64,000 nt of DNA, from assembly GCF_964204645.1 (NCBI RefSeq), contig NC_134031.1, forward strand, positions 13,255,807-13,319,806, read 5' to 3'. The position numbers were made by a program, and so were the translations under genes. Shown here in pieces: positions 28,870 through 64,000 of this stretch. Source of the DNA: Tubulanus polymorphus. Taxonomy: Eukaryota; Animalia; Nemertea. The first letter of the stretch is position 1. Every line of letters starts with the position of its first letter. The notes under the pieces were generated by a model. The model was not told the DNA's origin and made no database searches. It saw only the letters and a list, made by a program, of their open reading frames with translations.

Positions 28870-29836
28870 AACTAGGGGTCCAGGGACACCATGCCCACTT
28901 GGGAAGTGGTTTCAAATGCTCAACAATCTAAAAATTTCAACATTCAACGCCCCCTGGTGACCATTTACAAAAACTTATGTCCTTAAAACTCGCAACAATC
29001 ATAGATGATGTCATGAGCTACAACTTTCCAATTGATTGTGGTTACAAAATATGCATAGGTACGAATATAATAAAGAAATGCTAAGATATTGTATTATTCA
29101 ACGCCCCCTGGTGGCCATATACGAAATCCAATTACCTTGAAACTCACCACATTCATAGAACACGTTATGAGCAACAATTTTCTAATTGATTGTGGTAGCA
29201 AAATATGCTTAGGTATCAATATAATGTGGAAAAACTTTTTCCCACTTACGAATGAGTACTGGTGACACCAAGATGGCCGCCAATTGCGTCATAATTGGCT
29301 GATGAAAAATACCTGTCTCAGGTATAAAACATCCCTTTCCAAAGAATACCCATCACAAATTGTAATGAGAAATGGCAAACCAGTAGGAAGCTACAGGACT
29401 CAGAATTTGGGCCAAAATTAACATTTTTTGGCACTAAAAAGGTCATAGGACGGTCATCTTGAGTCCGACCGACCCAATTTTTGTTATGTTGATGGGCCCT
29501 GGGGGGATTCACATATATCCGAAAGATCAAGGTAATTGATCAAAGCGTCTTCAAAATTTCCCTCAAAAAGTTCAAAAATGTGTAAAAAGTGCTGATTTTG
29601 ACGAACTACAATGGCTGCCAGTCGGCCATCTTGAATCTGACAGGGCCAGTTATTGGGCTGAAGATGTGTCTAGGGTAGATACATGTGTAACCCAAATATC
29701 AAGACATTACCTTGAAGCGTCTTCAAAACTTCCCAAAATAACTGGATTCCATCTACGGACGAACGGACGCTACGACGGACGACGGACGAAAAGTGAACGC
29801 AATAGCCCGCTGGGACTAAAGTCCCAAGTGGGCTAA
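28870..29836 (-). mobile_element. HINE-like element with 2 internal repeats
   Basis: Near-identical to 37032-38302 but with fewer 154-bp units. A terminal fragment of the family also lies at ~28143-28365. Confidence 0.8.
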
Positions 29837-37031: not shown

Positions 37032-38302
37032 AACTAGGGGTCCAGGGACACCATGCCCACTTGGGAAGTGGTTTCAAATGCTCAACAATCTAACAATTTC
37101 AACATTCAACGCCCCCTGGTGACCATTTACAAAAACCAATGACCTTGAAACTCACCACAATCATAGAACATGTTGACAGCTACGATTTTGTAATTGTGAT
37201 AACAAAATATGCCTCGTTACCAATTTAATATGGAAATACTAAGTCATTCTACTATTCAACGCCCCCTGGTGACCATATTCAAAACCCAATGACCTCGAAA
37301 CTCACCACAATCATAGAACATGTCATGAACTACAACTTTGCAATTGATCATGGTAACAAAATATGCCTAGGTACCAATATAATAAGGAAATACTAAGTTA
37401 TTCTACTATTCAACGCCCCCTGGTGACCATACAGAAAAACTTATGTCCTTAAAACTCGCAACAATCATAGATGATGTCATGAGCTACAACTTTCCAATTG
37501 ATTGTGGTTACAAAATATGCATAGGTACGAATATAATAAAGAAATGCTAAGATATTGTATTATTCAACGCCCCCTGGTGGCCATATACGAAATCCAATTA
37601 CCTTGAAACTCACCACAATCATAGAACACGTTATGAGCTACAACTTTCTAATTGATTGTGGTAGCAAAATACGCTTAGGTATCAATATAATGTGGAAAAA
37701 CTTTTTCCCGCTTACGAATGAGTACTGGTGACACCAAGATGGCCGCCAATTGCGTCATAATTGGCTGATGAAAAATACCTGTCTCAGGTATAAAACATCC
37801 CTTTCCAAAGAATACCCATCACAAATTGTAATGAGAAATGGCAAACCAGTAGGAAGCTACAGGACTCAGAATTTGGGCCAAAATTAACATTTTTGGGCAC
37901 TAAAAAGGTCATAGGACGGCCATCTTGAGTCCGACCAACCCAATTTTTGTTATGTTGATGGGCCCTGGGGGGATTCACATATATCCGAAAGATCAAGGTA
38001 ATTGATCAAAGCGTCTTCAAAATTTCCCTCAAAAAGTTCAAAAATGTGTAAAAAGTGCTGATTTTGACGAACAACAATGGCTGCCAGTCGGCCATCTTGA
38101 TTCTGACAGGGCCAGTTTTTGGGCTGAAGATGTGTCTAGGGTAGATACATGTGTAACCCAAATATCAAGACATTACCTTGAAGCGTCTTCAAAACTTCCC
38201 AAAATAACTGGATTCCGTCAACGGATGGACGGACGCTACGACGGACGACGGACGAAAAGTGAACGCAATAGCCCGCTGGGACTAAAGTCCCAAGTGGGCT
38301 AA
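37032..38302 (-). mobile_element. HINE-like element with 4 internal ~154-bp repeats
   Basis: Terminal palindrome plus subTIR (gcccacttggga); repeat anchors at 37107, 37257, 37411 and 37565; (GGAC/GAC)n microsatellite; subTIR with inverted repeat at the other end; A-rich flanks (TT target on the minus strand). Confidence 0.8.
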
Positions 38303-42378: not shown

Positions 42379-44804
42379 GTCTGTCTGCAGAGTTTCCAGA
42401 ACCTGTCATGTCAGGTCTTAAGACCTGACATGACAGGTCTGACCTGTCATGTCAGGTCCCGAAAAAACCCAAACTCATGACAATATTTGACGAAACGGCG
42501 AAATATCTAGGCATGTGTTAGATGAATGGAAGAACATTTTGAGTTGAATGAATATTCTGACCCGTCGTTAATATCGAAAATGATTCAACAATAACGATAA
42601 GGAAAATGTTCTGACAAATAATTCATTTGAAAGGTTGATTTATAAGAAGAAAATATTTATGTGTAAACTATGACTTATTTCTGTATTAAAGGTAAAAAAT
42701 AAGTTTCAGGCATAGATGAATTAATTAATGTAGAAATAAGAGCACATTATAAGAGAATATTTTCGCTAGATGAATCGAGGTCTTGATATTTCGTTTCCGC
42801 AATAAGACACTGAAAATTATCTGCTCACTATCACAGTTCGGCAACACTCCTCACTGTCCTGAAGTCCTGAAGTCTCACTATTTATATTCATTGTCTTTAT
42901 GATGTACATGTAAAAGAGCCGAATGCAATATAGAGACTGATTTTATTGAGACTGATTTTAAATCAACTCATCAATTTAAAGCATGAAGTTTTTTTCTTAT
43001 ATCAGTTTTAATGCAGACCTGTCACCACAGGTCCCGAGAAGCTCTGTAAAATGGCGCGAGCTGCCGTGTGAGGTCTCGCTTCATAATTTCTGTTTTATAG
43101 TAACTTTAGATTAATTCTATCCATGATTAGCAATTGATATTATACTCTTTGCTATAAAGAGACCATAAGAATTAATGTTTTCCTTCATTTCATCAGTTTT
43201 AATGCAGACCTGTCACCACAGGTCCCGAAAAGCTCTGCAAAATGGCGCGAGCTGCCGTGTGAGGTCTCGCTTCATAATTATTGTTTTATAGTAACTTAAG
43301 ATTAACTCTATCCATGGTTAGCAATTTATATTATACTCTTTACTATATAAAGGTTATAAAAAGTAAAATTTTTTCAATTTCATCAGTTTTAGTGCAGACC
43401 TGTCACCACAGGTCCCGAGAAGCTCTGCAAAATGGCGCGAGCTGCCGTGTCAGGTCTCGCTTCATAATTATTGTTTTATAGTAACTTTAGATTAATTCTA
43501 TCCATGGTTAGCAATTTATATTATACTCTTTACTATAAAGAGACTATAAAAATTAATGTTTTCCTTCATTTCATCAGTTTTAATGCAGACCTGTCACCAC
43601 AGGTCTCGAGAAGCTCTGCAAAATGGCGCGAGCTGCCGTGTCAGGTCTCGCTTCATAATTATTGTTTTATAGTATCTTAAGATTAATTCTATCCATGGTT
43701 AGCAATTTATATTATACTCGTTACTATAAAGAGACCATAAAAAGTAAAGTTTTTTCCATTTCATCAGTTTTCAAGCAGACCTGTCACCACAGGTCCCGAG
43801 AAGCTCTGCAAAATGGCGCGAGCTGCCGTGTGAGGTCTCGCTTCATAATTATTGTTTTATAGTAACTTAAGATTAACTCTATCCATGGTTAGCAATTTAT
43901 ATTATACTCTTTACTATATAAAGGTTATAAAAAGTAAAGTTTTTTCAATTTCATCAGTTTTAGTGCAGACCTGTCACCACAGGTCCCGAGAAGCTCTGCA
44001 AAATGGCGCGAGCTGCCGTGTCAGGTCTCGCTTCATAATTATTGTTTTATAGTAACTTTAGATTAATTCTATCCATGGTTAGCAATTTATATTATACTCT
44101 TTACTATAAAGAGACTATAAAAATTAATGTTTTCCTTCATTTCATCAGTTTTAATGCAGACCTGTCACCACAGGTCTCGAGAAGCTCTGCAAAATGGCGC
44201 GCGTTGCCGTGTGAGGTCTCACTAATTAATCAGTGTTATGTCTAATTTATCTATGTCAACTTATAAGCTTGGACTGAAATGTTTTTAAATTGTATGTGCA
44301 CTTGGTGAATTAATTATATTGCGAGTAATTAATAATAATATATAATAATATAGGGCCTAATCATAGTGAGTATAATGATTGTTATTAATGCTGATTATGA
44401 TTACATAAGGCACTACTAGTATCATTGCCTGATCTTGATATTTTCATGTTTCATGTTACAAAAAAATAAATTAATTGTAAAAATTTCTTTCAATGTTCTC
44501 AAATAATTCACAATCATTGCATCTTTACAAGGCAAACATAAATTCTTAAATGAATTCATAACACATCATAGTTTGTTTTTTGTTTTTGAATAATATATTC
44601 AGAAAGCACTAAGATATGTTCTTTTTGTTTCTTATCGGCTATCATTTGTTTTAAATCCGCGCCTATCATATCTTCTAATCGCCTATCATCGGTTCAGTCA
44701 TAACGATTTTCATTTTAGCAAATCGACCTGTCACCTGAGGTCCCACCTGTCATGTCAGGTCTTGGGCCCTGACATGACAGGTTCTGGAAACTCTGCAGAC
44801 AGAC
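42379..44804. mobile_element. Non-autonomous TIR element carrying a satellite array
   Basis: gtctgtctgcagagtttccagaacctgtcatgtcagg / cctgacatgacaggttctggaaactctgcagacagac. Confidence 0.8.
43000..44221 (+). repeat. 190-191-bp tandem satellite, ~6.4 copies, with a 571-bp higher-order period
   Basis: The anchor tcagtttt...gcagacctgtcaccacagg recurs at ~43002, 43192, 43382, 43573, 43763, 43953 and 44144. Units 571 bp apart are nearly identical. Confidence 0.95.
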
Positions 44805-49065: not shown

Positions 49066-50613
49066 ATGGCATTTCACGAGAAGGTAGTTATTTCGGGGAT
49101 AGGGTCTCATTATACGGCAAATGATATAAGGGTAGCTTTCCAGAGTTTCCCCGTGGTAGCTGTACACGGCTCAGCGGTAGAGGGGTTTTATGTGCTTTTT
49201 CCTTCCGGATGCGTGGCGAGCCAAGCGATGGCATTTTTTCAATTCGCAAGCGCAAAGTACCAACCTTGAGCAGGGGGAGCTATGTGTGCGGCTTTTGCAA
49301 AAAGAGAACAAGAAAAGTTTCTTTTTCGTGTTTTTAATGGGGTAGAAGATGGGGAACTACGTCAGGTGACGGTTGAGGAAAATGAAAATAAACCTGATTT
49401 TAAAAATGACGTGACTTTTAACACGGTTTATAAAGCTTTTGGAGAATTGGACGAGGAGGACCAGCAGCGTCTAGTTCATGAGCTGATTAGCAGGGGAAAG
49501 TCCTCCCAACCTTGTAACCTTCGAAGTTCTACTCCAGTTAAGCAGCCGCTTCCCGGTTTGTCTTTTAATTTACAGCCACAACGGGTCGAGAAAACTTTCG
49601 CCATTCAAGCGCCCAGGTTAGGTACTTTTTCTGGCGAGAGTGTCTCCAAAGGAGACCTTACCTTTAGGCAGTGGAAGCTTGAGGTTCAAGCGCTGCTACG
49701 AGACGAAAGTTATGGTCAGGGTTCGATTCTTCAAGCCATGCGCAGATCCCTCAGAGGGGATGCTGCGGCTGTTCTGTTTAATTGTGGTCCGAACGCGGAT
49801 GTATCCACCATTCTAGAGAGGATGGCTCTTGTTTTTGGGGAAATCTTTTCGGTAGAGGAAGGCTTAGCCCAGTTTTATATGATGTCGCAGAAGGCGGACG
49901 AGTCAGTGGCTCAGTGGTCTTGTAGGCTTGAGGATGTAGCTGCTCGTGTCCGTGGTCTGCCAGGAGGAGCGGGCGCTGTCGGTTCCGAGACACTCCGTGG
50001 TCAGTTTTGGCGTGGTCTCCGTAATGGAATGGTGCGCATGGGAACACGCTTTCTCTTTTATTCCAACGCGACCTATTACGAGATCGTAACAGAGGCTAGA
50101 AAGATTGAAGGGGAAACGGAACGGAGAGATTTCAAGTCTGTGGTGCCTCCGAAAAAACTTATGAATTCTCAAGTGTCTTCTAAAGACACACCCGGTCACT
50201 CTGGGGATCCCGCCTCCTCGTGGGAAAGGCGTTTTGATCAGGTGATGAAGCGGATGGCCGCTATCGAGGCTAAATTGGAGAACCGTCCTAGGTTGTGGGT
50301 CCCTCCTCCAAGACCTCCCTTTAGGAGTCAGGTAGGGCAGCGCTACGGAGGAGCTTCTTCGTTTGGGTTTCGTCCAAGGCTGCCCACACCTTCGCAGCGG
50401 ACGTGTTTTTCCTGTGGCGGCGTTGGGCATATCCGTCGCGTATGTCCGAGTAGAAACATGGATAACAGGCCTTTGTCAGCCGGTAACGGTAGTTCGGGTG
50501 ATAGAGATGGTCTCTCTAATAGAGATGACAGTCTCTCTGGTAATAACAGCTCGTATGACCCAAAAGAGAAAGTGTCCGTTTCGAGGGGCGGACGCGTGAC
50601 ACGTCGGTATTAG
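49066..50613 (+). CDS. Gypsy gag (PNMA/Arc-like capsid + CCHC knuckle), with an in-frame stop at 49267-49269
   Basis: PRLGTFSG...FRQWKLEV...MRRSLRGDA...Q...ESVAQWSCRLE...QFWRGL; CFSCGGVGHIRRVC. ORFs 48976-49269 and 49282-50613 share a frame. Confidence 0.85.
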
Positions 50614-50639
50614 GGAACAGCCCTCAAACGAATATATCT

Positions 50640-51071
50640 TATCGCGTCGTTGGTAGAGCCAATCTCTCGACAGTTTCATTGGATGGGGTACCTTGTTATG
50701 CTTTAATTGACAGCGGGTCACAAGTGTCCACGGTTTCGAGGAAGTTTGTCGAGGTTTACATGCCCGAAGTCCCTGTGCAGCCAGTAGCTGATTTTCTTGA
50801 GGTAACGACCGCGGGTGGTGCGGCCCTGCCATATTCCGGTTATGTCGTTGCTCGGTTGCAAGCAGCCGATTTGGATATGGAAATCCCTATGCTTGTTGTT
50901 GAGAGTACCGACTACCATGAGAAGGTACCTGCTTTGATTGGCACCAATGTGCTGGACCGGGTCAAGGATTTTTCGACCTTGTCGGCGGCCTGGGCTGCAG
51001 CGGACCCTATACGTTGTAACAACATTTCCGAATCGGTAAAATTGACTAAGGCAGTCTCCGTGAGTAATTAG
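50640..51071 (+). CDS. Gypsy aspartic protease (start of pol, truncated)
   Basis: ALIDSGSQVSTVS...LPYSGYV...PALIGTNVL, in the -1 frame relative to gag. Confidence 0.85.
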   Translation, partial: YRVVGRANLSTVSLDGVPCYALIDSGSQVSTVSRKFVEVYMPEVPVQPVADFLEVTTAGGAALPYSGYVVARLQAADLDMEIPMLVVESTDYHEKVPALIGTNVLDRVKDFSTLSAAWAAADPIRCNNISESVKLTKAVSVSN

Positions 51072-51111
51072 GAAAGTAGGCTTTCAGATCAGAGGACGAG
51101 AGGACGAGACA

Positions 51112-51150
51112 CCACTCATCACCACAAGTAATTTTTTTTCCTTATAAATG
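51112..51150 (+). promoter_or_regulatory. Shared 39-bp promoter-like motif of plus-strand Polinton genes (second copy 51457-51495; variant 62047-62095)
   Basis: CCACTCATCACCACAAGTAATTT(T/G)TTTTCCTTATAAATG ends exactly at the start codon. Confidence 0.7.
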
Positions 51151-51354
51151 GAAGAGAATAAGACAGAACAAATTGATGTTAATGAAAATCAATATCATTG
51201 TCCATATTGTAAAAAATACATTGATAAATCAAATAAACCTTACATGGAAAATGTTAGAAATTATATTGATTCACTAGAAATAAAAGATACAATTGAAATT
51301 TTAGAAATATTACGCAGTAAAATTGTGACACACATAAACAGTGAGTGCGCGTAA
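51148..51354 (+). CDS. Small hypothetical protein with CxxC (Polinton)
   Basis: TAAATG start after a shared 39-bp motif; YHCPYCKKY. Confidence 0.65.
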   Translation: MEENKTEQIDVNENQYHCPYCKKYIDKSNKPYMENVRNYIDSLEIKDTIEILEILRSKIVTHINSECA

Positions 51355-51492
51355 CAACAGCTGCGCGTGTGTTAACTGTACCTGGATAAATAGATGCTGT
51401 GAGGCTTGGGTGAGAACGGTTAATAGCGTGTTTGTTATATACAGGGGAAGTAATCCCCACTCATCACCACAAGTAATTTGTTTTCCTTATAA

Positions 51493-51819
51493 ATGGGAGA
51501 TAGAAAAGCATTCTTAGCAACAATAAATAACAGAATAAAACCAGCAAAAAAACAATTTGAAATAAAAAAGTTAGTTGATGTTACAAAAGAAATTGAACAT
51601 AAAATATTGAAATTAGAAAAGATAAAAACTAAATATGGAGAGAAAGTATCAGCTAATTTAAGCTACTGTAATGTTAGTACATCACGAGAATTTAAAGTGT
51701 TTTTACCCGATAAATGGGTTTCATTGAGTACAGAGGAATTGAAAGATTTAGTAGGATTTAAAATAATATATCATGGGAAAAATGAAGACGGTCATCATGA
51801 TTTAGAAATTGTTGATTGA
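51493..51819 (+). CDS. Hypothetical Polinton protein, possibly an OB-fold ssDNA-binding protein
   Basis: TAAATG start after the same 39-bp motif; TKYGEKV...FKVFLP beta-rich pattern. The fold call is inference. Confidence 0.65.
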   Translation: MGDRKAFLATINNRIKPAKKQFEIKKLVDVTKEIEHKILKLEKIKTKYGEKVSANLSYCNVSTSREFKVFLPDKWVSLSTEELKDLVGFKIIYHGKNEDGHHDLEIVD

Positions 51820-52924
51820 ATAGAAAATAAAAATAATGAATATCTAGAATCCAAAATGACCTTAGTCGTTTTATAAACAACTACAATCATACAGTACATC
51901 TGTTACATGTTATTATAAGAGAGTGCTTCATTTGAATATTGATCGATCAAACAGGTGTTGCACAACGTTGTTGTTATATTGGATAGCTAGCAGTTTTATA
52001 ATAAGCACGTAGTACATACAACACACACAAACCAGTTAGCCGGCATTGAACTACCACGTTTTCATTGGTTTCTGAAAGCGAGGTTTATTTAAATTAGCTC
52101 GGCCGTGACGACAGGAGGATAGTCATCATTCTCTCGTGATTAAAAGGAATATTTCAATGTTTTTACGGTAAGTTTTAGCAAAATTGCCCTATCGTCGACC
52201 TATAGAGTTTTCAGGGGATAAGCATCCCATTATTGAAAGGCGCCACGGGACGCTTATCCCCCGTCATTTCTACTTACACCCCCGGAGACCCACGTCAACC
52301 GGGATCTCCTTCAATGATTGGTAGAAATCACATTATATTAAAGGCGCCTAATGTAATTTCTACCAATCTCGAAATTCGAAACCGAAGGAGAAACCCGGAG
52401 AGTGGACGAAGGTGCATTTTCAAAATGCCTCTGCTGGCCAGAGCTACTCCAGTGGTTGAATGAATTGCCTTATATACTTAGCTAAAACACCTAAGTAAAT
52501 GTTGTTGGTGCTAAAAAAATATGTGAAATTTGAAATTATAAATTATTCCGAATGAAAAGAATGTAAGAATGAAAACTGATCAATGAATTATGTATTTTTA
52601 ACTTAATTATGATATAATTTTTAATCAAATTAGTAATCAATTACTATGTTAATTGATTAACAAATTCAAATTCAAATATTCATTTTAGCATACTCAGTGC
52701 TGCCATCTTTCAATTTAAGAAAAAACTAATAATAAGAAACGACTGTAATACAATATTCAAATAAAAACAAAATAAATTAATAAAAATAATGAATATCTAG
52801 AATCCGAAATGACTTATCTGGACAATTTAATTGCTCCACATAGATAGACAAAAGTAGTGAGATGGTGCCGTACGGCTCCCACATGGTGATATTCAATTAT
52901 TTTTTTTGCTTTTTTTCTAAAATA

Positions 52925-53224
52925 TTAATCCATTTTTTTTATTATCAATTTTGGAATTTCAGAAGTACTTTCATTTTTGATAGCAGTTGGTTCAGAATTA
53001 CTAATATCATGAATTTTATTTGATTTCTTATACCAATTACACCCAATCAAAATGAATACAATTACAAATCCAACTCTAAAATATAGATATTTATCAAATA
53101 TTCTATTATCAGAAGGAGTAGAAATAACAATATTTTCACCATTTTTATTAACATTTTTATTACTTATTTTTTCTTTTACAGCTTTTTTATATTCTTGTGA
53201 TTTAATTCTAATTGCCGAGACCAT
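52925..53224 (-). CDS. Hypothetical protein with a transmembrane segment (possibly the C-terminal part of the upstream gene)
   Basis: VGFVIVFILIGC; in frame directly after TGA 53225-53227. Confidence 0.6.
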   Translation of the reverse strand: MVSAIRIKSQEYKKAVKEKISNKNVNKNGENIVISTPSDNRIFDKYLYFRVGFVIVFILIGCNWYKKSNKIHDISNSEPTAIKNESTSEIPKLIIKKMD

Positions 53225-53831
53225 TCAATTTGTTTCTGAGTTCTCGGTTTTTTCTTCACAGTTAATTCCTTCACTTCTTTCACCTCGCTCATTTATTATA
53301 GAAATATTTTTACTTTCAATATTTGAAAATGTTATAACCCCGGTTGATAATAATGTCATAAATCCACCTAATTGAAATGATAAATATCCAATCCATTTAT
53401 TTAATTCAGTCATAACTAAATAGTCATTTTTTAAATCGGAATATAATCTATTTTCATTTTCAATTGGTAGTATATAATTACATAATTTACTATAACCTTT
53501 TACTACATTTTCTGATATCGCGTCATTAATTTTAGCTGTTCTCGCGGCTTCATAAATCTTAAATAATCTAATAATTTCAACTGATTTCATTGTATCTAAT
53601 TCATTATAAGTTAAATTTTTATCAACAAATTTTTTACATTTTCCAGATGCTATTAATATTTCTAATTGATGTTTACAATAAAGATAATATTCATAATTAT
53701 TATTTGTTGTAACATTATTTAAAGCACCATCATCTGGAGTTAATTTTGTTTCTGTTATTCCTAAATCATCTAAAGTTTTTTCAATTGGAACATCACCATT
53801 TTTAGATTTTATTTTGTTTTTCACCTCCCAT
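53225..53831 (-). CDS. Hypothetical Polinton protein; true start probably the ATG at 53831, followed by a 1-nt frameshift
   Basis: ~200-aa ORF with a hydrophobic C-terminal helix. The T7-GTTATA-TAAATG motif sits out of frame at 53829-53847. Confidence 0.7.
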
Positions 53832-53864
53832 TTATATAACAAAAAAATTAATTGTGTGATGTTG

Positions 53865-54113
53865 CAACTAGAATTTAACTAGAATGTAACTAGAATTCAA
53901 CTAGATTAACAAGCTAGTTGAAATATTGTTGTTTTTGTTTATTTCTAGTTAAATCTAGTTGATTTTTGTTTCAACTACTAACAACTAGAATTCAACTAGA
54001 ATGTAACTAGAATTAAACTAGATTAACAAGCTAGTTAAAATATTGTTAAATCTATTTGATTTTTGTTACAAATACCAATAACTAGAATTCAACGAGATTA
54101 ACAAACTAATTGA
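53865..54113. repeat. Intergenic array of ~11-bp AACTAGAAT motifs in direct and inverted orientation
   Basis: caactagaatttaactagaatgtaactagaattcaactagattaacaagctagtt occurs twice, with inverted ttctagttaaatctagttg between the copies. Confidence 0.85.
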
Positions 54114-54115
54114 AT

Positions 54116-54724
54116 TTAAATAAATTCATATTTAAATGGGTGTTGTAATCTAAATAGTAATTTTGATCTTTTAATATTTTTCAACTTATCCATATATTCA
54201 TTATGTAAATCATGTGGAATAATATCATTTTCCTCAAGTGCATTTTTCATCGATTTTCTATCTTTATTGTAGAATAAAACTAGAAATCTAATGTTTTCTC
54301 TAAAGTCTTTAACAATTGAATTATATTTTTGATTTAAAACCCAAGTTGTTATCCCAAAATGTCTCCCAGAGAAAGCTAAATAGCATAACTCACTTTCTCT
54401 AACTTTTGAATCATGTAGATTAGCACAATCATCTATAATGAATAATGTATTTGATCCTTTATAAATATCAATTGCTATTTTAATACAATTATCTAAATTT
54501 TCTTTTACTGTTTTAGGATCTAATATAATAAATTTATTATTCCTAGTAATATTTCTATCATAAGTTTGATTAAATTCATATGTTGGGCAAAATAATACTA
54601 TATTATCAAAATAGTTTTCATAAACAGGTTCTAATAAATTTAATATAAAATAAGTTTTTCCACAATTTGTTACACCAGAAATTAACATATTATGAGGCTC
54701 AAATATGAATAATTCCTTATTCAT
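54116..54724 (-). CDS. A32/FtsK-like genome-packaging ATPase
   Basis: Walker A ISGVTNCGKT, Walker B LFIIDD, arginine-finger region SGRHFGITTWVLNQ. Confidence 0.92.
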   Translation of the reverse strand: MNKELFIFEPHNMLISGVTNCGKTYFILNLLEPVYENYFDNIVLFCPTYEFNQTYDRNITRNNKFIILDPKTVKENLDNCIKIAIDIYKGSNTLFIIDDCANLHDSKVRESELCYLAFSGRHFGITTWVLNQKYNSIVKDFRENIRFLVLFYNKDRKSMKNALEENDIIPHDLHNEYMDKLKNIKRSKLLFRLQHPFKYEFI

Positions 54725-55624
54725 TTATATATTTTTAATTTTACTTGATAATATCCATTCATTGAATTTATCTGGCCATCCAACCCATTTTACCAAAGAA
54801 TATTTTTTTCTTTTAATAGTTTTTGTTTTTAATACTTTTTCAATTTTATATTCTTGTTCTAGATTTTCAGTAGTTAAACTTAATTCTTCTTCGTAAAAGT
54901 AGCCATCAACTTCTTCACAATCTAAATCTTCTAATTTATAGACATATACATTTATATCATATCCCTCTATCAATTTTGGTAAAACATCAATCCATTTAAA
55001 AGTATTATTTGCTGTAAAATATTTCCACATTCTTGTTCTTAATGTTCTATTAAATCGTTCAACAACTGCTGCTTTTTTATCCGATTTTGTTGAAAAATAT
55101 TCAATATTATGATTATCTAAGAGTTCATGAACAAGTGAATTATCAAACTCTTTTCCATCATCAAATTGTATTTTTTCTGGTTTTAGTTTATCATCCGAAA
55201 GAAATTTTCTTAAAACATTTGATGTTTGTACAGCATCTTTTCTATAAAGTGGGAAACTCCATACATAACGACTAAAAATATCAATTATATTCAATAACCA
55301 CCAATAATCATCATTATCTTTCTTAACATTTTTCATATCAATTAAATCTCCTTGCCACTGTTGATCTACATAACTTACCATAGTTTAACGAGTTTTATAT
55401 TTTCTAACAATTTTTTTATGTGTTGTGTATGTTGGTTGTTCTAACATAAATTCATTTATATCTTTATATTTAACTAAATTTTGTGGGGTTATCTTATCTA
55501 ATTTATCTTGTTTTACTTTACGCCATATATTTTTAGTAGAAGAATAAGCAACCGAACTCTCAGGGTTGTAATATAAATTTCTTAAATATTGTTCTTTAGT
55601 ATTAGGAGTTTTTTTACCACCCAT
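54725..55624 (-). pseudogene. Retroviral-like (rve) integrase with C-terminal chromodomain; nonsense codon at 55385-55387 and an apparent internal deletion
   Basis: YYNP N-terminus; QWQGDLIDM, IDIFSRY, QFDDGKEF, VVERFNRTL (DDE); YKIEKVLK...LVKWVGWPDKFNEWI. The usual segment after ...LIEGY appears to be missing. Confidence 0.9.
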
Positions 55625-55654
55625 TTATATATCCTTAATTTTAACTTTATATTT

Positions 55655-56903
55655 CTAATATTGAATACTATCTAATTGTGAATTTACAATATTTAATTGC
55701 GCGTCAGATATAATATAAATATGCATTTTAAAATTTAAGCTTCCTTTTTTCTTTTTCATGAATAATTGTATTCCATCTTTAGTGTTCTGTAGTTTTTTCC
55801 CAGAACCATGTAATGAATTATCCTCTGTTGTTCTAAAATCTAACCATAATGCATATTTATTGCCGGTATAATAATCAATTTGATTAATATTACAATTTTC
55901 AAATGATTTTACTTTTTCATTCATAAAATGTTTTCTAATTTCTGGCCATTGATCAATCATTCTCATTCCTTGGCAAAATATTTTATTTGCTATTCCTTCG
56001 ATAGTTATTTCTACTTTTGTTATTTCAGGATTATAATAATTATCTACCTTTATTGCACCATTAGAATATGTTGCAATGGTAAAAAATATTAATATACCTT
56101 TAATAGATCTTCTTGGGAAGTTAATATTCTCATTAATTATTTCATCATTTGCATTAATAGTTACGGTTTTAAATTTATCAATATAATCATATAATAATGA
56201 AAATCCTTGATTGTATTGAGTTTGAATTATACTTGAAATATTTTCATCAGTTACTGTATCATATTCTAAACATATATTCGATAATTTATAACTCATATCT
56301 TTAACAACGCTAGATAATACAATTTCATTTACAGGAGCAAATGTTATCTCAAATATAATATCTTCTTGAATTGCGTATTTATATAAAGGTGCATTATTAT
56401 TTATCAATTCAAAATCTAATGGAATTTTATATTTGCTTCCATAAATCTTTTTAATCAAATTATCTGTGGCACGAGTTACTATTACGTCATTAGCTCCTGA
56501 TCTTAATTTATTATGGTTTTCCGATTGGATGCCTTGAAATATCATATTATTTCTATTTTCTTTAGTTAACCATAAATCTTTATAATGCATAAATGAATTA
56601 TAATCATCTAATGAGAAAACTGTTTCCGGACCAATCTTTATAGTTAATTTTTTAATCAAATATCTTCCAACATTATCAACAACATAATTGTTATCATATA
56701 CCAGTTACTTTTATATTGGCTGATAAATAAATACTATTTGGAACATAAAAAGTATTTTGTGTTAACCTAGGAATTCTAACATATAAAGTTTCATCGGGAT
56801 TAATATTTGAAGGGTTATGAGTAATTATATGATATGATCTTTCTGCTTTAATAGCATTAGATATTCTAGAAATCTTAGAAGGACTTATATAACTCCCACT
56901 CAT
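55655..56903 (-). pseudogene. Major capsid protein (double jelly-roll), frameshifted at ~56695
   Basis: ITHNPSNINPDETLYVRIPRL...then NVGRYLIKKL...YKIPLDF...YKLSNICLEYD...PRRSIKGIL...YYNPEITKVEITIEG...YALWLDFRT...HGSG, matching adintovirus/Polinton hexon-type motifs. Confidence 0.85.
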
Positions 56904-56927
56904 TTATTAAACAAAAAAATTAATTAT

Positions 56928-58412
56928 TTATTTTTTATTATTTTTTTCTTGATATCTTTTTGATATCATATTTACTAACCCAAAAAGAATAGCACTTACA
57001 ACTGTGATTAAAAATAAAATAATATGTTCAGCAGCAAAGTTAAGAATATTACCTGCAGATTTCAATATAAAACCAACAATTGATGCAATAACTCCAGGTA
57101 AAGCTGCAGCAGATTTTTTAGATAGTTCCCATAAATATTTTGCTAATTTCTTTAAACCATCCTTAACTTTATCTTGTATAGAATTATTGCCTGGAGGTTT
57201 ATCTGGTTTATTGGGAGTGGGAGTAGGAGTAGATTTTAAAGCATTTGATATAGCTAAACCTATTGTTGTAAATACCATAGTTACAGATGTTAGAATTGAA
57301 AGAATTGTTATTCCTTCTAACTTAAATAATAATTTTATTCTGTCTTTTAATGATATTTTAGAATTTGGTTTTATCAACAAATCTTTAAAAATAACTTTTC
57401 ATCTATTAATATTATAATCATATGATTTTAATAATGTATCTCTTTCTTCTTTTTGTAATTCTTTGTTATATTTTAAATCATCTATTTCTTTTTCTAAACG
57501 TAATTCTTTTTGTCTATATTCTATTTCATCAATTACTTGATGATCTAAATCAGACTTTAATTGTTCTATTTCTTTATTTTTATCAGTTAATTCTTTTTCT
57601 AAAGTTCTAATTTTTTGATCTCTTATACTTTTATTATGTGCAATTTTATCAGCTTCATTTCTTATACTAATAATTTCTCTAATTGCTTCATCAGAAAATA
57701 TATTTAAATCTTCTAATTGTTGATCTGTTGCATCAAGTAATCCATTCGGTAAAAGTTTTTCAGTTTGAACTTCGTTTGATTTAATTTTACTAGTTTTGGA
57801 AGTTTTATTCTGTTCAGAAGTTGTTTCTATTTCCGATTTCTTTTTGATTATTTTAAATAAGTCATCAATTCTTTGTTTAAATACTCTTATATTATTATCT
57901 CTTTCTTCTTGTGTTACATTTTCTATTTCATTACTATTTCTTATTCTCTTAATTCTTTCTGTTTCTAAATTTTTCAAAGTTGATTCCGCTAATATTTTAC
58001 TTTGTCTTGTCCTTTGATTAGTGATATCAATATAATAATCACCATCCAAATGATAATAATATTTACCATCTAAAAACTTTAACTCTTGTGCTAAAATTCT
58101 GGTGTCTCTAAAATTTATATTATATTCAGATCTTTCAAATATATGTTGTAATCTAAGCGCTTGGTTTATATTTTCTAAATCTTGTCTTTCTAAACCTGGG
58201 TCTAAATTTTCAGGATTTATTCTCGATCTAGTTCTTCTATCAAATTCATCTGTTGATGGGGCTTTAGTATCAGGTCTTGATAAATTAGAATTATATGCCG
58301 TTTTATTATCATTACTGAAACTTGTTTCACTAAAATCAGGTTGTTGTTCATCACTTATACCGGGTTCATCTAAAGGATCCAATGGAATATCTTCTCCACC
58401 TTCTACATCCAT
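56928..58412 (-). pseudogene. Coiled-coil protein with C-terminal hydrophobic helices (conserved adintovirus-type membrane-active protein); in-frame stop at 57399-57401
   Basis: ORFs 57399-58412 and 56928-57380 are in frame; LKDRIKLLFKLEGITILSILT...LPGVIASIVGFIL. Confidence 0.75.
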
Positions 58413-58428
58413 TTATATAATAAAAAAA

Positions 58429-59757
58429 TTAAAATTTAAAATATAATATTCCTCCGATTACAATTCCTATACAAGTTATAGCTAATTTAGTATTTTCATG
58501 GGATTTATTATCATCATTTAGTTTAATTATATCATGTTGAATAATATCAGTTCTAATATCACCGTGTGGGTGCCGTACGGCACCATTTTCTGATGTATTA
58601 TAATCTTTTATTTTGGAATCATTATCCAATTTAATATTCTTAGTTTTAGTTTCTGTTGATTGAATATGTTTTTTATTTTTTTCACCTTCCATTAATTTTG
58701 GAGCAGTAATAATCTTTTTATTTATATCATTCAATCCAAATGAATTATTTATTGTTGCAGTTTTAATTAGATTATTATAACCAATTATATTTCCCATCTT
58801 CAATACTAAATCATTAGAAATAATTAATAGATTAGGGCCTATACAATAATTAAGTCTTACATGTGATTTATCTAAATAATTTTGATATCTTATAATGTTT
58901 TCTGGAATCGATCTATTTTTATCATTATGAATTGAATCTTCAAATAAAACTTTAAACTGTTTCTGCGCATCGAATGAAGTGTTATCATTTCCAATTATTG
59001 GGGATCTTGTTTCAACTTGAGCGCCTAAAATACATATCAAATAAATTCTAATAGATTGATTTATTCTTTGTATACCTGATTTTGTAAAACCTTCACCATT
59101 TTCTAAAATGAAATTAACCCAACCATTATTATTATCAATTCTATAATTATGATAAGCTGAAATTCTATGCATATAATCAATTCTTTTTATTTCAAACTCT
59201 TCACCAACACCTTGCAATTTACCATGCGCTCTGAAATCGGAATTAATATTTATATTAAATTCATTACATATTTTATAAAACTTAGATATATTAATATTAT
59301 TATCCAATTCTTTTAAATATTTAGACCCGGGTAAAGGACATTCTAATTCATTTAATATTATTCTGATTTGAAAATATGTGTGAAATCTAAATATTGTGTG
59401 AATTAATTTTAAATCAGAATACTTTAAATTTTTATCTAAGTTATTTAAATGATCATTCCAACTTATTCCACATCCTGTTGTTGCACAATAAACAGCAAAA
59501 TCTAATTGGTTGTGCCAATATTTCATATTAGATTCTACTTTATATATATGATATTCATCTCGAGTAAAAGTAACTTCATATGTATTAAATATATTTTCCA
59601 TTTTAGAAATAAAAAACTGTGATTCAGTAACATAAATTTCTAAATTAGTTAATGAATCTAAAACTACATTTTTATATGTAATATTTTTCTTAAAATCTAT
59701 TGCCGGAATATTATATTTAATTGATTTATTATATTGGAAAGCTTTTGGAAACCCCAT
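58429..59757 (-). CDS. Conserved hypothetical Polinton protein with a C-terminal membrane anchor
   Basis: 442 aa; WHNQLDFAVYCATTGCGIS, FRFHTYFQIRIIL, RINQSIRIYLICILGAQ; C-terminal LAITCIGIVIGGILYF. Confidence 0.8.
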   Translation of the reverse strand: MGFPKAFQYNKSIKYNIPAIDFKKNITYKNVVLDSLTNLEIYVTESQFFISKMENIFNTYEVTFTRDEYHIYKVESNMKYWHNQLDFAVYCATTGCGISWNDHLNNLDKNLKYSDLKLIHTIFRFHTYFQIRIILNELECPLPGSKYLKELDNNINISKFYKICNEFNININSDFRAHGKLQGVGEEFEIKRIDYMHRISAYHNYRIDNNNGWVNFILENGEGFTKSGIQRINQSIRIYLICILGAQVETRSPIIGNDNTSFDAQKQFKVLFEDSIHNDKNRSIPENIIRYQNYLDKSHVRLNYCIGPNLLIISNDLVLKMGNIIGYNNLIKTATINNSFGLNDINKKIITAPKLMEGEKNKKHIQSTETKTKNIKLDNDSKIKDYNTSENGAVRHPHGDIRTDIIQHDIIKLNDDNKSHENTKLAITCIGIVIGGILYFKF

Positions 59758-59773
59758 TTATATAACTAAAAAA

Positions 59774-60208
59774 TTAATAATTAACTAATTCTTTTAATAA
59801 TTTATCTTGTTCTTCAACTGTTATATGGCCATTTAAACTTATTATATAATCTAGTGTATTCTTTAATTTATTAATTTCTTTTATATTAGTTTTGATTTTT
59901 TCTTTATTACTTTTTATATTTAATTTTGAACTTATACCAGTTAAAACACTTGAACTTAATCCTAATACACCAATTGATATAGCTAAAGGTGTTAATGGGC
60001 TGAATATTGCTAGAAATGTTATTACAGAACTAATTGTAACCGAACCACTTATAATCAAATAATATATAATTTTACTTTTTAAATATTTTTTCTTTTTTAT
60101 CTTTAAGTCACTTTCAAATTCTAATATTTGTTTTTCTAAATATGTTTTTAATTTAGTTTTATTTATATCATGAGGAATAATATCAATATTATCAACTTTA
60201 TCTTCCAT
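59774..60208 (-). CDS. Two-TM membrane protein flanked by coiled coils
   Basis: Hydrophobic hairpin IIYYLIISGSVTISSVITFLAIF...LAISIGVLGLSSSVLTGIS; TAAATG start. Confidence 0.75.
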   Translation of the reverse strand: MEDKVDNIDIIPHDINKTKLKTYLEKQILEFESDLKIKKKKYLKSKIIYYLIISGSVTISSVITFLAIFSPLTPLAISIGVLGLSSSVLTGISSKLNIKSNKEKIKTNIKEINKLKNTLDYIISLNGHITVEEQDKLLKELVNY

Positions 60209-60227
60209 TTATTTAGAAAAAAAATTA

Positions 60228-60650
60228 CTAATTAGTAAATTTATACGCTACAAATATAACAATAACAGTTCCGCCTAAAATCCAAATTATTTCATATTTC
60301 TGTTGTTCTTTACTCGGGGTATAATAATCTGATAATTTAGGTTTGTATAGATGTAATTTTTCTTTATTTGTTACTGCGTTATATAAACTCATTGCATCAT
60401 CAACTGATTGAAAATCTCTATGTGAAATCTTCTGATCATATCATTCTTTATTGATGTAATCCATATAGTTTTGTCTCTTTTCTCTATATTCTTCTGCAGC
60501 TTTATTATATTTCTCTAACGCTAAGTTATGTCTTCTTTGTTCTCCTAATGAACTATTTTTATCAATATGTTTAAATAAATATCCACCACCAGTAAATGCC
60601 AAAGCGTTAACAATTGCCGATCCTATAATAGTTATAATTGCAGAAGCCAT
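60228..60650 (-). pseudogene. Small membrane protein with N- and C-terminal hydrophobic segments; premature TGA at 60441-60443
   Basis: MASAIITIIGSAIVNALAFTGG...EQRRHNLALE. The frame continues after the stop (YDQK...PKLSDYYTPSKEQQKYEIIWILGGTVIVIFVAYKF) to TAG 60228-60230. Confidence 0.75.
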
Positions 60651-60666
60651 TTATTTAGTAAAAAAA

Positions 60667-60895
60667 TTATGCATTTATATGGGAGGAATATTTTTTTTTT
60701 TCCAAATAATCAATAGTTAAATTAGATAAAGTAACTGCTAATGTTAATTTTAAAATATCATTTATATCAAATCTATCAACATTAACACTTCCCATTTTAA
60801 ATACTTTTTTTTAATACCATTGAATAACCAACAGTTCCAACTGATAGTAATGCTCCATTATATAATCCAGTTATTATCCACTTATTATCACTCAT
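60667..60895 (-). pseudogene. Small hydrophobic protein missed by the ORF track; frameshift in an A-run
   Basis: TAAATG at 60893-60898; MSDNKWIITGLYNGALLSVGTVGYSMVLKK / VFKMGSVNVDRFDINDILKLTLAVTLSNLTIDYLEKK. Confidence 0.65.
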
Positions 60896-60898
60896 TTA

Positions 60899-61252
60899 TT
60901 AATCAAAAAAATTACTATCTTCAAAATATTTAGTTATCTTAGTGATGATTATTTCAACATTTATTTTATTACTAGTTTCATTTGTATATATTTCAATTAT
61001 TATTTTTTTAATATCATCGATGATAAAATCTTCATCTAATTCATAAAATCTTAAAGATTCCTTAATTAAATTAGTAATCTTTTCTACATTTAATGTTTCT
61101 TTATCTATTGTTGTTTCATACTCAAATGTTGTTTCATTAGAAAATGCAATATTTTTGATATGTGTAATTACATCATTCATGTTAAATTTCATTTCTTTCT
61201 CACGTTTGAAATCAAATCCAAAACATATACTCGGTCCAACAGTTATATTCAT
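60899..61252 (-). CDS. Hypothetical protein
   Basis: 117-aa ORF with a T-tract/TAAATG start, packed between its neighbours. Confidence 0.65.
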   Translation of the reverse strand: MNITVGPSICFGFDFKREKEMKFNMNDVITHIKNIAFSNETTFEYETTIDKETLNVEKITNLIKESLRFYELDEDFIIDDIKKIIIEIYTNETSNKINVEIIITKITKYFEDSNFFD

Positions 61253-61268
61253 TTATATAGGTGAAAAA

Positions 61269-62024
61269 TTACTCTTTACATCTTATAACTAATTCATAAA
61301 TTACAGGAAAGTTATTCAAATCAATTAAATAACCATTGTGATTTCTTATTTCTAATTTAAAATTATTGAAATGCGGAATACAAGGTTTAAAATCACATTC
61401 AGCTAAATTATAATTTATTTGCGTTCCAAATTGTTTAACATTCTTCAATGGTAAAATATTTAATAAACCAGAATTACAAATTGTATCTTTAGTTGCTTCA
61501 AATGTTTTTGTAGGATCAATTAAATTGCAATAAATATAAAAATGTGTAAAAGGTATTATATTTGTATAAGTATCAATATTTGAATAATGTCTATCCGGAA
61601 GAATTCCAAACAGTTTAGCTAAAGGTTTTCTTACTAGAAATCTATGTTGTTCATTAGTTAACTTTATTCTTATTTTATTCGAACTATCACTTTTGATGAA
61701 TTTAATTTCAAATCGAGCAGCTGAGCCCATTTTTAAACGAGCTCTTTTATTAATATCTTGCGCTAATGTTTCTAAATTATATAATCCTGGTTTTAGATAG
61801 AGATGAAACCATTTATTCAAATTTCTATCATAAATTTTAAAAGCTAAATGATCAAGACTTTTATTCGATATATTATGAAAAGAATTACATAAACTTATAT
61901 TAACTAATTTTAAATCTACACAATTCTCGAATTCTCTATCTAATTGTACTAGTAAATTATGTGATTTATAATTTGTAAGTTTTCTAGAATCAACAAATAT
62001 TCTGTATTCTTTTAATTCTACCAT
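61269..62024 (-). CDS. Minor capsid protein (penton, single jelly-roll)
   Basis: IFVDS...LVNISLCNSFHNI...LKPGLYNLETL...FYIYCNLID...LEIRNHNGYLIDLNNFPVIYELVI. Confidence 0.8.
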   Translation of the reverse strand: MVELKEYRIFVDSRKLTNYKSHNLLVQLDREFENCVDLKLVNISLCNSFHNISNKSLDHLAFKIYDRNLNKWFHLYLKPGLYNLETLAQDINKRARLKMGSAARFEIKFIKSDSSNKIRIKLTNEQHRFLVRKPLAKLFGILPDRHYSNIDTYTNIIPFTHFYIYCNLIDPTKTFEATKDTICNSGLLNILPLKNVKQFGTQINYNLAECDFKPCIPHFNNFKLEIRNHNGYLIDLNNFPVIYELVIRCKE

Positions 62025-62092
62025 TATTTATAACATAAAAAAATTACCGCTCATCACTAAAAATTAATCTTAATAAAATTTTTCCTTAATAA

Positions 62093-63418
62093 ATGGATGA
62101 GAAGATACCATGTGAAATTTGTGGTGAACTTCTAAGAAAAAGTAATATGGCTCGACATATGAAAAAACATGATGAAAATTATAAACCCCCTAAAATAAAC
62201 TGCCCAAAATGTAATAAATTATTCTCAAGAAATTATGTTAAAAAACATTCAGAGAAGTGTAGAATTAATGGCGCAACGGCTAATGTTGATAGTAACGAAA
62301 GTAATAGTAATTCTGCTGAAGTTGAACCTGAAGTTATTTGGAAAATACCTTTCTTATTCTATGATAAGGATAATATAAAATATCATTTCTGTGAGCCTTG
62401 TCGAATGAAATATAACCCTGAAAATATAGAAGATTGGGAGAATCATCAATTTCGTAAAGTACATATAGATAAAATTTCTAATAAATTTGAAACTGAATTT
62501 AATGAAAGAAAAAATAAAATATTAGAAAAAATAAAATATGAGAAAACGTTACCAGATAATGAAGAAACAGTTGAAAAGTTAGAAAAACAATATAATGAAT
62601 TAACAAGAAAAACATATTATTGTAAATATTGTAAATTGATTATTACAACAAGTAATTCAAATCTACATAATAGAACAATAAAACATAAAGAAAACGTAAG
62701 AAAATACCAAGAGCTTAATGAAGATCTATTACCAATAAATTATAAACAAAAATGCCCACAATGTATTTATGCGACCTTAAGACAAGAGGGTACTGTGTTA
62801 TTTTGTAATGAATGTGGATGGCAAAAGAATTTATGGGGTGAAGAAAAAACTAGAAATTTTCTCATAGATCCAAAATTAAATTATCTAGAAGAAATTTTTG
62901 AAATATTTTCTATGGAAGATCATACACCAGAATATATGCAATGGCTTGAAAAAATGAAAATAATAGAAAATGAAAATGGTGAAATAACTAAAAAAGATAT
63001 TATAAAAACAATTATTCCACCAACATTTAACACAAAACAAAAGAAAATGTATTTATATTTATTATTTAACGATTATTATGAAAAACCTAAATTAACAGAA
63101 GAAGATATGGAAAATATAAAAAAAATATTTAAACAAATATTAATGTATCATTTGGAAAATAGAATAACAGATTCAATAAATTATGAATTCTTTTTAAATA
63201 AGATTGTAAATTATTTAAACATAGATATTATAATTCCATTTGATGAATTAACAAACAAAAAGAAACAAAGAGAGCGAGATGAAATGTGGAACAATATAAC
63301 ACGTTATTTAAATGAGAAAAATGAAATAGAAGAACCTAAACAAATTATACAAGAACAATTAAATGAAAAAGAAGAAACCAATAGTGATTTCGAGTTTGAT
63401 GATATTGATCCATTTTAA
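62093..63418 (+). CDS. Poxvirus A2/VLTF3-like late transcription factor with N-terminal zinc fingers
   Basis: Four C2H2/C2HC-like fingers, a CPQC...CNECG ribbon, then NFLIDPKLNYL...LTEEDMENIKKIFKQI...EN...SINYEFFLNKI...W, which resembles vaccinia A2. Confidence 0.75.
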   Translation: MDEKIPCEICGELLRKSNMARHMKKHDENYKPPKINCPKCNKLFSRNYVKKHSEKCRINGATANVDSNESNSNSAEVEPEVIWKIPFLFYDKDNIKYHFCEPCRMKYNPENIEDWENHQFRKVHIDKISNKFETEFNERKNKILEKIKYEKTLPDNEETVEKLEKQYNELTRKTYYCKYCKLIITTSNSNLHNRTIKHKENVRKYQELNEDLLPINYKQKCPQCIYATLRQEGTVLFCNECGWQKNLWGEEKTRNFLIDPKLNYLEEIFEIFSMEDHTPEYMQWLEKMKIIENENGEITKKDIIKTIIPPTFNTKQKKMYLYLLFNDYYEKPKLTEEDMENIKKIFKQILMYHLENRITDSINYEFFLNKIVNYLNIDIIIPFDELTNKKKQRERDEMWNNITRYLNEKNEIEEPKQIIQEQLNEKEETNSDFEFDDIDPF

Positions 63419-63999
63419 TAACCATAAGGTAATGTTTTTATACCATCATCTGAAATATGTCTTTTATCATCAAATGGATTTAAACTAGTTTTTTCAACTT
63501 CATTAATGTACATCTCGTGATCTTCTGATCTTAAACAATTCATTTTGTGTTTCATTACAATTGAGCTATATAAACACTTTATATAATCTTGAAATTCTAT
63601 ATGTTTATCAACCACATGTTTTGTTATTCCTTTTAACTTTTTAGCTTCATGATCTTTTGTTCTGTAACTATACATTTTACTTCTTATCCCAACAAATTCA
63701 ATCATTTCATCACCTCCTAATTCATCTTTAAACTTACCAGGAATCTTTTTATTATCATTGCTAAATAGTTCATGATCTTTGGGATAATTGCTAAAATCAA
63801 AATAATGTTTTAATGTTTTTAAGTCTTTTGTTATGTCATTTGTCTTGATTTTTAGTATGTAGGCGTCAGTATTGAAGCAAATTAATGGAAATCCACAGTT
63901 AAATGTACCATCTTCAGTTGATAAATCATAAACATAATCTGTTGGGTTATATATTTCAAATAAATCTTTAACTTCTTCAGTTAAATCTTTTTCTGTGTG
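63415..63999 (-). CDS. polB: Protein-primed family B DNA polymerase, C-terminal part (frame open to the window edge)
   Basis: TDAYIL...FDFSNYPKDHELFS..NKKIPGKFKDE...EFVGIRSKMYSY...KKLKGI...SLNPFDDKR...TLPYG. Confidence 0.93.
   Translation of the reverse strand, partial: HTEKDLTEEVKDLFEIYNPTDYVYDLSTEDGTFNCGFPLICFNTDAYILKIKTNDITKDLKTLKHYFDFSNYPKDHELFSNDNKKIPGKFKDELGGDEMIEFVGIRSKMYSYRTKDHEAKKLKGITKHVVDKHIEFQDYIKCLYSSIVMKHKMNCLRSEDHEMYINEVEKTSLNPFDDKRHISDDGIKTLPYGY
63871..63999 (-). other. C-terminal splicing region of a putative intein in pPolB motif C
   Basis: ...EVKDLFEIYNPTDYVYDLSTEDGTFNCGFPLICFN | TDA: intein block F (YVYDL), block G ending in Asn, and +1 Thr. Confidence 0.78.
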
Positions 64000-64000
64000 G

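Follow-up and report, generated by a model that had tools for sequence, protein, structure and literature searches.

An open reading frame that runs off the edge of the window (the whole stretch of 64,000 nucleotides analysed here) encodes the end of a protein-primed DNA polymerase (pPolB) of a Polinton element, in which the YxD half of the catalytic motif is missing before the Thr residue. This raises the question of what stands in its place. An earlier note, made on the letters of the DNA, had proposed that blocks F and G of an intein replace the missing half, at the pol-c site used by giant-virus PolB inteins. The minus-strand frame from 63999 to 63415 was confirmed to be open up to the window edge, giving 194 residues that read ...DYVYDLSTEDGTFNCGFPLICFN|TDAYILK... 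(the bar marks the predicted splice junction), and the bases agree with the Asn and Thr codons on either side of the junction, and with the Phe before the Asn, as the note had placed them. Features of the window are collected in Table 1.

Table 1. Features of the window, with strand and basis of assignment.
Feature	Position	Strand	Basis or remark
Two-ORF APE-RT LINE	3078-7566	+	ORFs, Pfam
Two exons of host HMCES/SRAP gene	18066-21962	-	Pfam, PDB comparison
G+C-rich RT element, RT start duplicated	about 29.8-35.4 kb	-	ORFs, Pfam
Gypsy gag-protease, weak PNMA-like match; ends where Polinton starts	49270-51071	+	Pfam
Polinton/Maverick element	51100..64000	.	Left end approximate, right end beyond window
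Polinton packaging ATPase (Pox_A32)	54116..54724	-	Pfam E 1.4e-12
Polinton integrase, rve and weak chromo match; two ORFs split by in-frame stop	54725..55624	-	Pfam
Probable major capsid protein, two overlapping ORFs in different frames	55655..56903	-	Capsid_N E 0.0084, below cut-off
C-extein: last 151 aa of Polinton pPolB, frame intact	63415..63870	-	83% identity to intein-free P0002 and P0366
Thr+1, first C-extein residue, predicted splicing nucleophile	63868..63870	-	Bases; same junction in homologs
Block G end: penultimate Phe (codon 63874-63876) and terminal Asn (codon 63871-63873)	63871..63876	-	Bases
Block F region YVYDL..TFNCG; Asp is the block F Asp of relatives	63892..63936	-	Alignment
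C-terminal 43 residues of pol-c-type intein (post-endonuclease linker, blocks F and G)	63871..63999	-	Runs off window edge

The window holds the last 43 intein codons only, and the N-terminal junction of this copy lies beyond position 64000. The related pPolB P0005 has a complete intein of 354 aa at this site, and 30 of the 43 residues are identical to its end (70%, pairwise E 2e-18). On a profile of 150 giant-virus-type pol-c inteins, built with no Polinton rows, the segment scored 28.9 bits, compared with at most 1.4 bits for 200 shuffles; in 90 intein-free pPolBs, the 43 residues that precede the site reached no more than 3.0 bits. A profile of the upstream stretches from 90 intein-free pPolBs gave it −2.2 bits. 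These scores rule out a chance resemblance or a divergent polymerase segment, and a spliceosomal intron or a frameshift is ruled out by the presence of the same protein-level insert and junction in 11 homologs. BLAST matches of most intein-free pPolBs start at residue 39–45 of the query, and those of intein carriers at residue 1–21; related pPolBs that align through the segment, which the note had named as contrary evidence, did not appear. The insertion is in frame at an xxD|TD site and absent from close homologs, as in a class 1 intein of the pol-c type, and the block F Asp, the terminal Asn and Thr+1 are all present. Searched alone, the 194-aa fragment gave no Pfam or NCBIfam match at E ≤ 1. 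We conclude from the sequence that the window almost certainly ends inside the C-terminal end of an intein set between the Asp and Thr of YxD|TDx in a Polinton pPolB.

Homologs of the window pPolB were examined for the same insertion (the best 120 of 434 longer ones). Among these 120, 11 contain an insert ending at the same N|TDS junction and the others lack it, the polymerases closest to the window pPolB being empty. Intein-free sister Polintons, for which the note had asked, are among them; P0002 and P0366 are intein-free (Table 1). A representative library gave no pPolB carriers among its best 150. Further carriers came from additional protein searches. One carrier, P0167, is a pPolB of a very different class; its intein, at YLD|TDS, belongs to the same clade as the others.

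The anatomy of 12 full-length Polinton inteins was compared. They are 333–354 aa long, and each (12/12) contains Ser1, a D[VA]TxxH block B, two GF[FY]xxDG (LAGLIDADG-type) motifs, the block F Asp and a terminal Asn|Thr. The xxD|Ser1 junction, TxxH-type block B and LAGLIDADG motifs predicted in the note are thus found in the relatives, and lie outside what is read of the window copy. The proposed profile check also gave matches, some of them below the cut-off. In the four full-length carriers scanned with Pfam, LAGLIDADG_3 was above its cut-off in 4/4 and Intein_splicing matched in 4/4 with E 2e-9 to 1e-5, above the cut-off only in P0026; in the four Polinton carriers scanned with NCBIfam, intein_Nterm (TIGR01445) matched in 4/4, with 2 above the cut-off.

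The window copy has Phe in place of the penultimate His, the usual but not universal residue. Nine of the 12 full-length Polinton inteins have His at this position, two have Lys and one has Ser. The penultimate His does not define this allele, because the 150 giant-virus-type inteins have Lys in 123 cases and His in only 17, as the note had anticipated in saying that His may be missing. None of these 150 has Phe, which occurs in only 2 giant-virus-type inteins among 132 new representatives. Inteins with a penultimate Phe can splice. Our literature search found no report on splicing with this residue.

The element around the polymerase was assigned as a Polinton/Maverick from its protein-primed PolB (the C-extein homologs carry PF03175), its interrupted rve integrase and its packaging ATPase. 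G+C content drops from 40% in the flank to about 25% from ~51.1 kb to the window edge. Terminal inverted repeats or a target-site duplication were not seen within 48–64 kb; the right end of the element lies beyond the window. Because its integrase and capsid genes are interrupted, the window copy is partly decayed and may be a dead copy.

The word TAATTT-N8-WWWAAATG, a pattern picked after the repeats had been seen, occurs exactly 10 times in the Polinton (51129 and 51474 on the plus strand; 53850, 56922, 58431, 59776, 60227, 60669, 60914 and 61271 on the minus strand) and not at all in the 51-kb flank. Its terminal ATG starts an ORF wherever checked, and the word is likely an element-specific promoter or initiator; we take its TAAATG end to resemble poxvirus late promoters. 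The Polinton also contains a G+C-rich inverted pair of 32 bp (52862–52893 and 58555–58586, 94% complementary), one arm of which lies inside a 442-aa ORF.

The decay of the element bears on the state of its intein. That the intein family is real, but the window copy a remnant, decayed or truncated, that has lost splicing and homing, is unlikely, though we give it some weight. The rarity of penultimate Phe in the family, the interrupted integrase and capsid ORFs and the presence of only the C-terminal part of the intein in view all fit such a remnant. However, the frame is open across all 194 visible codons, the block F Asp, terminal Asn and Thr+1 are intact, the absence of His is normal among the giant-virus-type relatives, and the TDA variant of the motif, found in the window, is also found in intein-free P0369.

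Precise in/out alleles of the intein were found among close relatives. P0026 aligns with four empty members of its own cluster at 97.0–98.2% identity, interrupted only by one 346-aa indel at the insertion site; the cluster has 136 members, and the 15 that were listed lie on contigs between 57 kb and 1 Mb long. Filled P0355 and empty P0358 are identical at 740 of 742 residues (99.7%), with a single 339-aa indel and identical flanks. In the P0026 family, comparison of six filled with two empty alleles placed 8–9 of the 16–26 extein differences within 28 residues around the site. This clustering would fit either co-conversion during homing or escape of empty sites, two processes that protein data cannot separate.

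Raw reads were surveyed in 4 runs (at most 3 samples, 2 studies). Depth in run X5, which belongs to a second study under the same species label, was 145–183 on the intein side, 346–489 over 63620–63824 of the extein, and about 210–325 over 62800–63290 in the neighbouring gene. This is as expected if empty and filled copies coexist. Because of the difference between the intein side and the extein, roughly one to two thirds of the related copies would be filled. Among the contig pieces listed, none spans the junction by 31 letters on both sides.

A tree of 127 C-exteins (P0102 was dropped as too short) placed the carriers in six separate places, mostly mixed with empty relatives. In this tree empty P0002 is the sister of the window pPolB, and no sequence is more distant than P0167. 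With the exception of P0167, the carriers all belong to one polymerase subclade of 57 members (support 0.915), a pattern that an old gain with many losses would also fit, and the intein subclades broadly match polymerase families. Alternatively, the intein could have been gained by a single ancestral Polinton lineage, then passed on by vertical descent and lost precisely time and again, with little homing between families. We regard this as distinctly unlikely, given that P0167, for all its distance, has an intein inside the same clade, that the endonuclease motifs are kept in 12/12 inteins, and that the differences clustered at the site in the P0026 family have the pattern of a co-conversion tract or a homing-resistant site. 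One capture, followed by homing between Polintons, is likely, because the inteins form one clade yet are scattered over the polymerase tree.

The source of the captured intein was sought among its relatives. A search with the P0005 intein returned 1302, and nearly all of the best 120 reside in RNA-primed PolBs at YGD|TD, in agreement with the pol-c site named in the note. Pattern-based extraction of pol-c inteins gave none for 8 of 116 new proteins. Of 132 new intein representatives, 120 are in PolBs like P0193 and none in a pPolB. Polinton inteins are 43–46% identical to their best giant-virus-type match. P0193 itself is encoded at 100% in a giant-virus MAG, and a search of IMG/VR with the intein alignment gave 5 loci, 4 of them with GVMAG names; for most of the other PolBs a viral source is presumed. 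The top fold matches were polymerases of a phycodnavirus, pandoraviruses, a marseillevirus and a megavirus, obtained with a weak model (pLDDT 60, below 50 in the C-terminal 58 residues). P0026 had no relatives in IMG/VR, the intein alignment found none in prokaryote genomes, and P0001 matched four loci in JGI metagenome contigs, all by the extein only.

Two intein trees were built, limited to inteins of at most 380 aa and omitting members retrieved from PolB clusters. The Polinton inteins are one clade among giant-virus-type PolB inteins, with support of 0.993 in the FastTree tree of 106 inteins, and SH-aLRT 100 and aBayes 1 in the IQ-TREE tree of 60 (12 Polinton inteins, 44 representatives of the 150 PolB-type inteins and 4 outgroup inteins). 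These outgroup inteins, which are not archaeal pol-c inteins, occupy a neighbouring site in polymerases of the same kind. Both trees place the Polinton clade several nodes deep among the PolB-type inteins; its sister group differs between them, that in the IQ-TREE tree including P0193. A non-nested tree was rejected only at p-AU 0.046 (5000 replicates, with a quicker search for the constrained tree).

An origin outside giant viruses, with the Polinton inteins as a sister lineage or with transfer in the opposite direction, is improbable. The marginal rejection of non-nesting, the unstable sister group and trees that lack an archaeal outgroup leave room for it. It is opposed by the nested position in both trees, by the far greater abundance and diversity of giant-virus-type pol-c inteins (those 120 representatives in PolBs), and by the FN[CT]GFPL wording of blocks F/G, which is common to the Polinton inteins and one PolB subgroup. 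The claim that a giant-virus-type intein moved into a protein-primed polymerase thus stands as to its giant-virus affinity, recovered in both intein trees, and is marginal as to the nesting that would give the direction. Capture from a giant virus seems to have been one old event common to several Polinton lineages. The note had also read into the locus a time spent alongside a large DNA virus; because the capture is old and shared, that contact concerns an ancestor, possibly outside animals, and not necessarily the lineage of the window.

Inteins of the same family also occupy D|TDG or D|CDG motifs of type II topoisomerases, in all five proteins scanned (P0378, P0469, P0478, P0495 and P0499) of 12 unassigned representatives. 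Because of these sites, we conclude that the family has jumped before between proteins with a short Asp-Thr-Asp-like motif. Several giant-virus-type PolBs (P0306, P0156, P0158 and P0160) contain a second intein at TD|S, and in P0306 the YGD|T and TD|S inteins are separated by only two extein residues.

The flank of the Polinton was examined for the identity of the host. Two of 111 short ORFs matched Pfam, both as SRAP. One HMCES exon scored 74 bits against human HMCES and 20 bits against bacterial YedK, in a comparison that weighs only human against bacterial SRAP proteins, and the same exon ends in a GT donor. Because of this resemblance and the donor site, the host is evidently a eukaryote. 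It is very probably an animal, because of the PNMA-like gag and the APE-RT LINE, whose C-terminal motif we take to be CR1-like. The RT element is presumably DIRS-like. No tRNA or Rfam matches were found in the window. A dispersed family of 154-bp tandem repeats (14603–15342, 28942–29225 and 37104–37702) and a 190-bp tandem array of 6.5 copies (42986–44220) also lie in the flank.

That the host is not an animal, or that the element is not integrated but is a free virus or an assembly chimera, is very improbable: the PDB comparison could weigh only human against bacterial SRAP proteins, but one gap-free window links the element with a Gypsy gag-protease, an APE-RT LINE and an intron-split HMCES gene, and the carrier P0018, filed under a symbiont bin from the clam Ctena, is likely host DNA. 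Of the note's claim of an intein in a metazoan chromosome, the animal host is likely, short of proof, and the gene that contains the intein belongs to a transposon rather than to the host. Two Polinton polymerases are filed as bacterial, P0018 in a Ca. Thiodiazotropha bin and P0015 under Bartonella sp.; both are likely host DNA in bacterial bins.

Taken together, we consider it probable that the locus holds a pol-c intein in a Polinton pPolB, likely with a LAGLIDADG endonuclease as in its relatives, predicted to splice itself out, likely derived from a single capture from a giant virus, and likely to home. The pPolB would be made as a precursor with its catalytic motif split in two, and the polymerase would be dead until spliced. 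From class 1 chemistry, with its Ser1, Thr+1 and terminal Asn as given in the accessible text of PMC7765530, we infer that an acyl shift at Ser1, attack by Thr+1 and cyclisation of the Asn would restore YxDTDx. Going by the distribution of the intein, the freed endonuclease may cleave the unoccupied sites of other Polinton copies that share its nucleus; when such a break is repaired with a filled copy as template, the intein would be written into the cut copy and so spread. A multi-copy family would offer a steady pool of empty targets, which single-copy animal genes lack. The first capture would have required a single encounter of a Polinton with a giant virus inside the same cell, and the host at that time was not necessarily an animal. 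For a bolder form of this account we see about even chances: active homing LAGLIDADG inteins from giant viruses would reside inside Polintons in the nuclear genomes of several animals and cross between distant pPolB classes, Polinton replication would depend on splicing, and empty copies would alter the surroundings of the motif to escape cutting, in an arms race.

The absence of inteins from metazoan genomes is described as an unexplained puzzle in the accessible text of PMC6805012. An intein kept in many Polinton copies of likely animal genomes would mean that the animal nucleus does not bar inteins, and makes testable the proposal that they persist only if empty targets abound, as they do in multi-copy elements. 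Such an intein would also document, at the molecular level, an exchange of DNA between giant viruses and Polintons, and the jump of a homing element between two very distant classes of family B polymerase sharing little beyond the motif. The natural in/out alleles, up to 99.7% identical, are a ready system for homing studies in animals. These implications extend to a virus-like element, not to a host gene.

Inteins of animal-infecting viruses provide one point of comparison. The intein of Chilo iridescent virus lies in its ribonucleotide reductase. It is an intein of a virus that infects animals; it differs from the Polinton inteins in being of the Glutamine type and in residing in a large virus which, in the accessible part of PMC549080, is not described as integrated. 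In the literature searched, we found no description of a Hint-type intein in a Polinton or pPolB; an earlier mention may exist elsewhere. The word "intein" has no occurrences in PMC8502044, animal terms looked for in PMC4760082 gave no match, and the accessible part of PMC12220804 mentions inteins in general terms.

A second point of comparison is given by the HNH and VSR nuclease insertions of Polinton pPolBs (10.1101/2023.08.22.554363), which likewise place endonuclease domains inside pPolB. They differ in the type of nuclease, and the accessible main text, in which "intein" and "LAGLIDADG" have 0 occurrences, describes no splicing domain at the catalytic motif. Citing that work, the accessible text of PMC11071308 puts forward the idea that these insertions "result from intein invasions".

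A third point of comparison is given by archaeal PolB inteins. A profile of the Polinton inteins matched 8 PDB sequences at E ≤ 0.01, namely PI-PkoII and other inteins. PI-PkoII (2cw7) was matched with E 1e-10 over N-terminal, endonuclease and C-terminal stretches, and the split intein NEQ068, which marks position III in the accessible text of PMC549080, with E 2e-4. The archaeal PolB inteins differ in their distant sequence and archaeal hosts, and that of Nanoarchaeum is split and acts in trans.

A further parallel is the PolB intein of Mimivirus, whose pol-c allele is described for Mimivirus and archaea in the accessible text of PMC549080. It shares with the full-length Polinton inteins a length of about 350 aa, a first Ser, a last Asn, Thr+1, a LAGLIDADG domain and position III of a family B polymerase; the giant-virus-type set used in our comparisons did not include the Mimivirus sequence itself. 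They differ in their hosts: the Mimivirus intein resides in an RNA-primed viral PolB (PF00136), whereas the Polinton intein resides in a protein-primed pPolB (PF03175) of an integrating element, in what is likely an animal chromosome. The allele type of the Polinton intein is known; its host gene is of a new kind, and the chromosomes that carry it very likely belong to a new kingdom.
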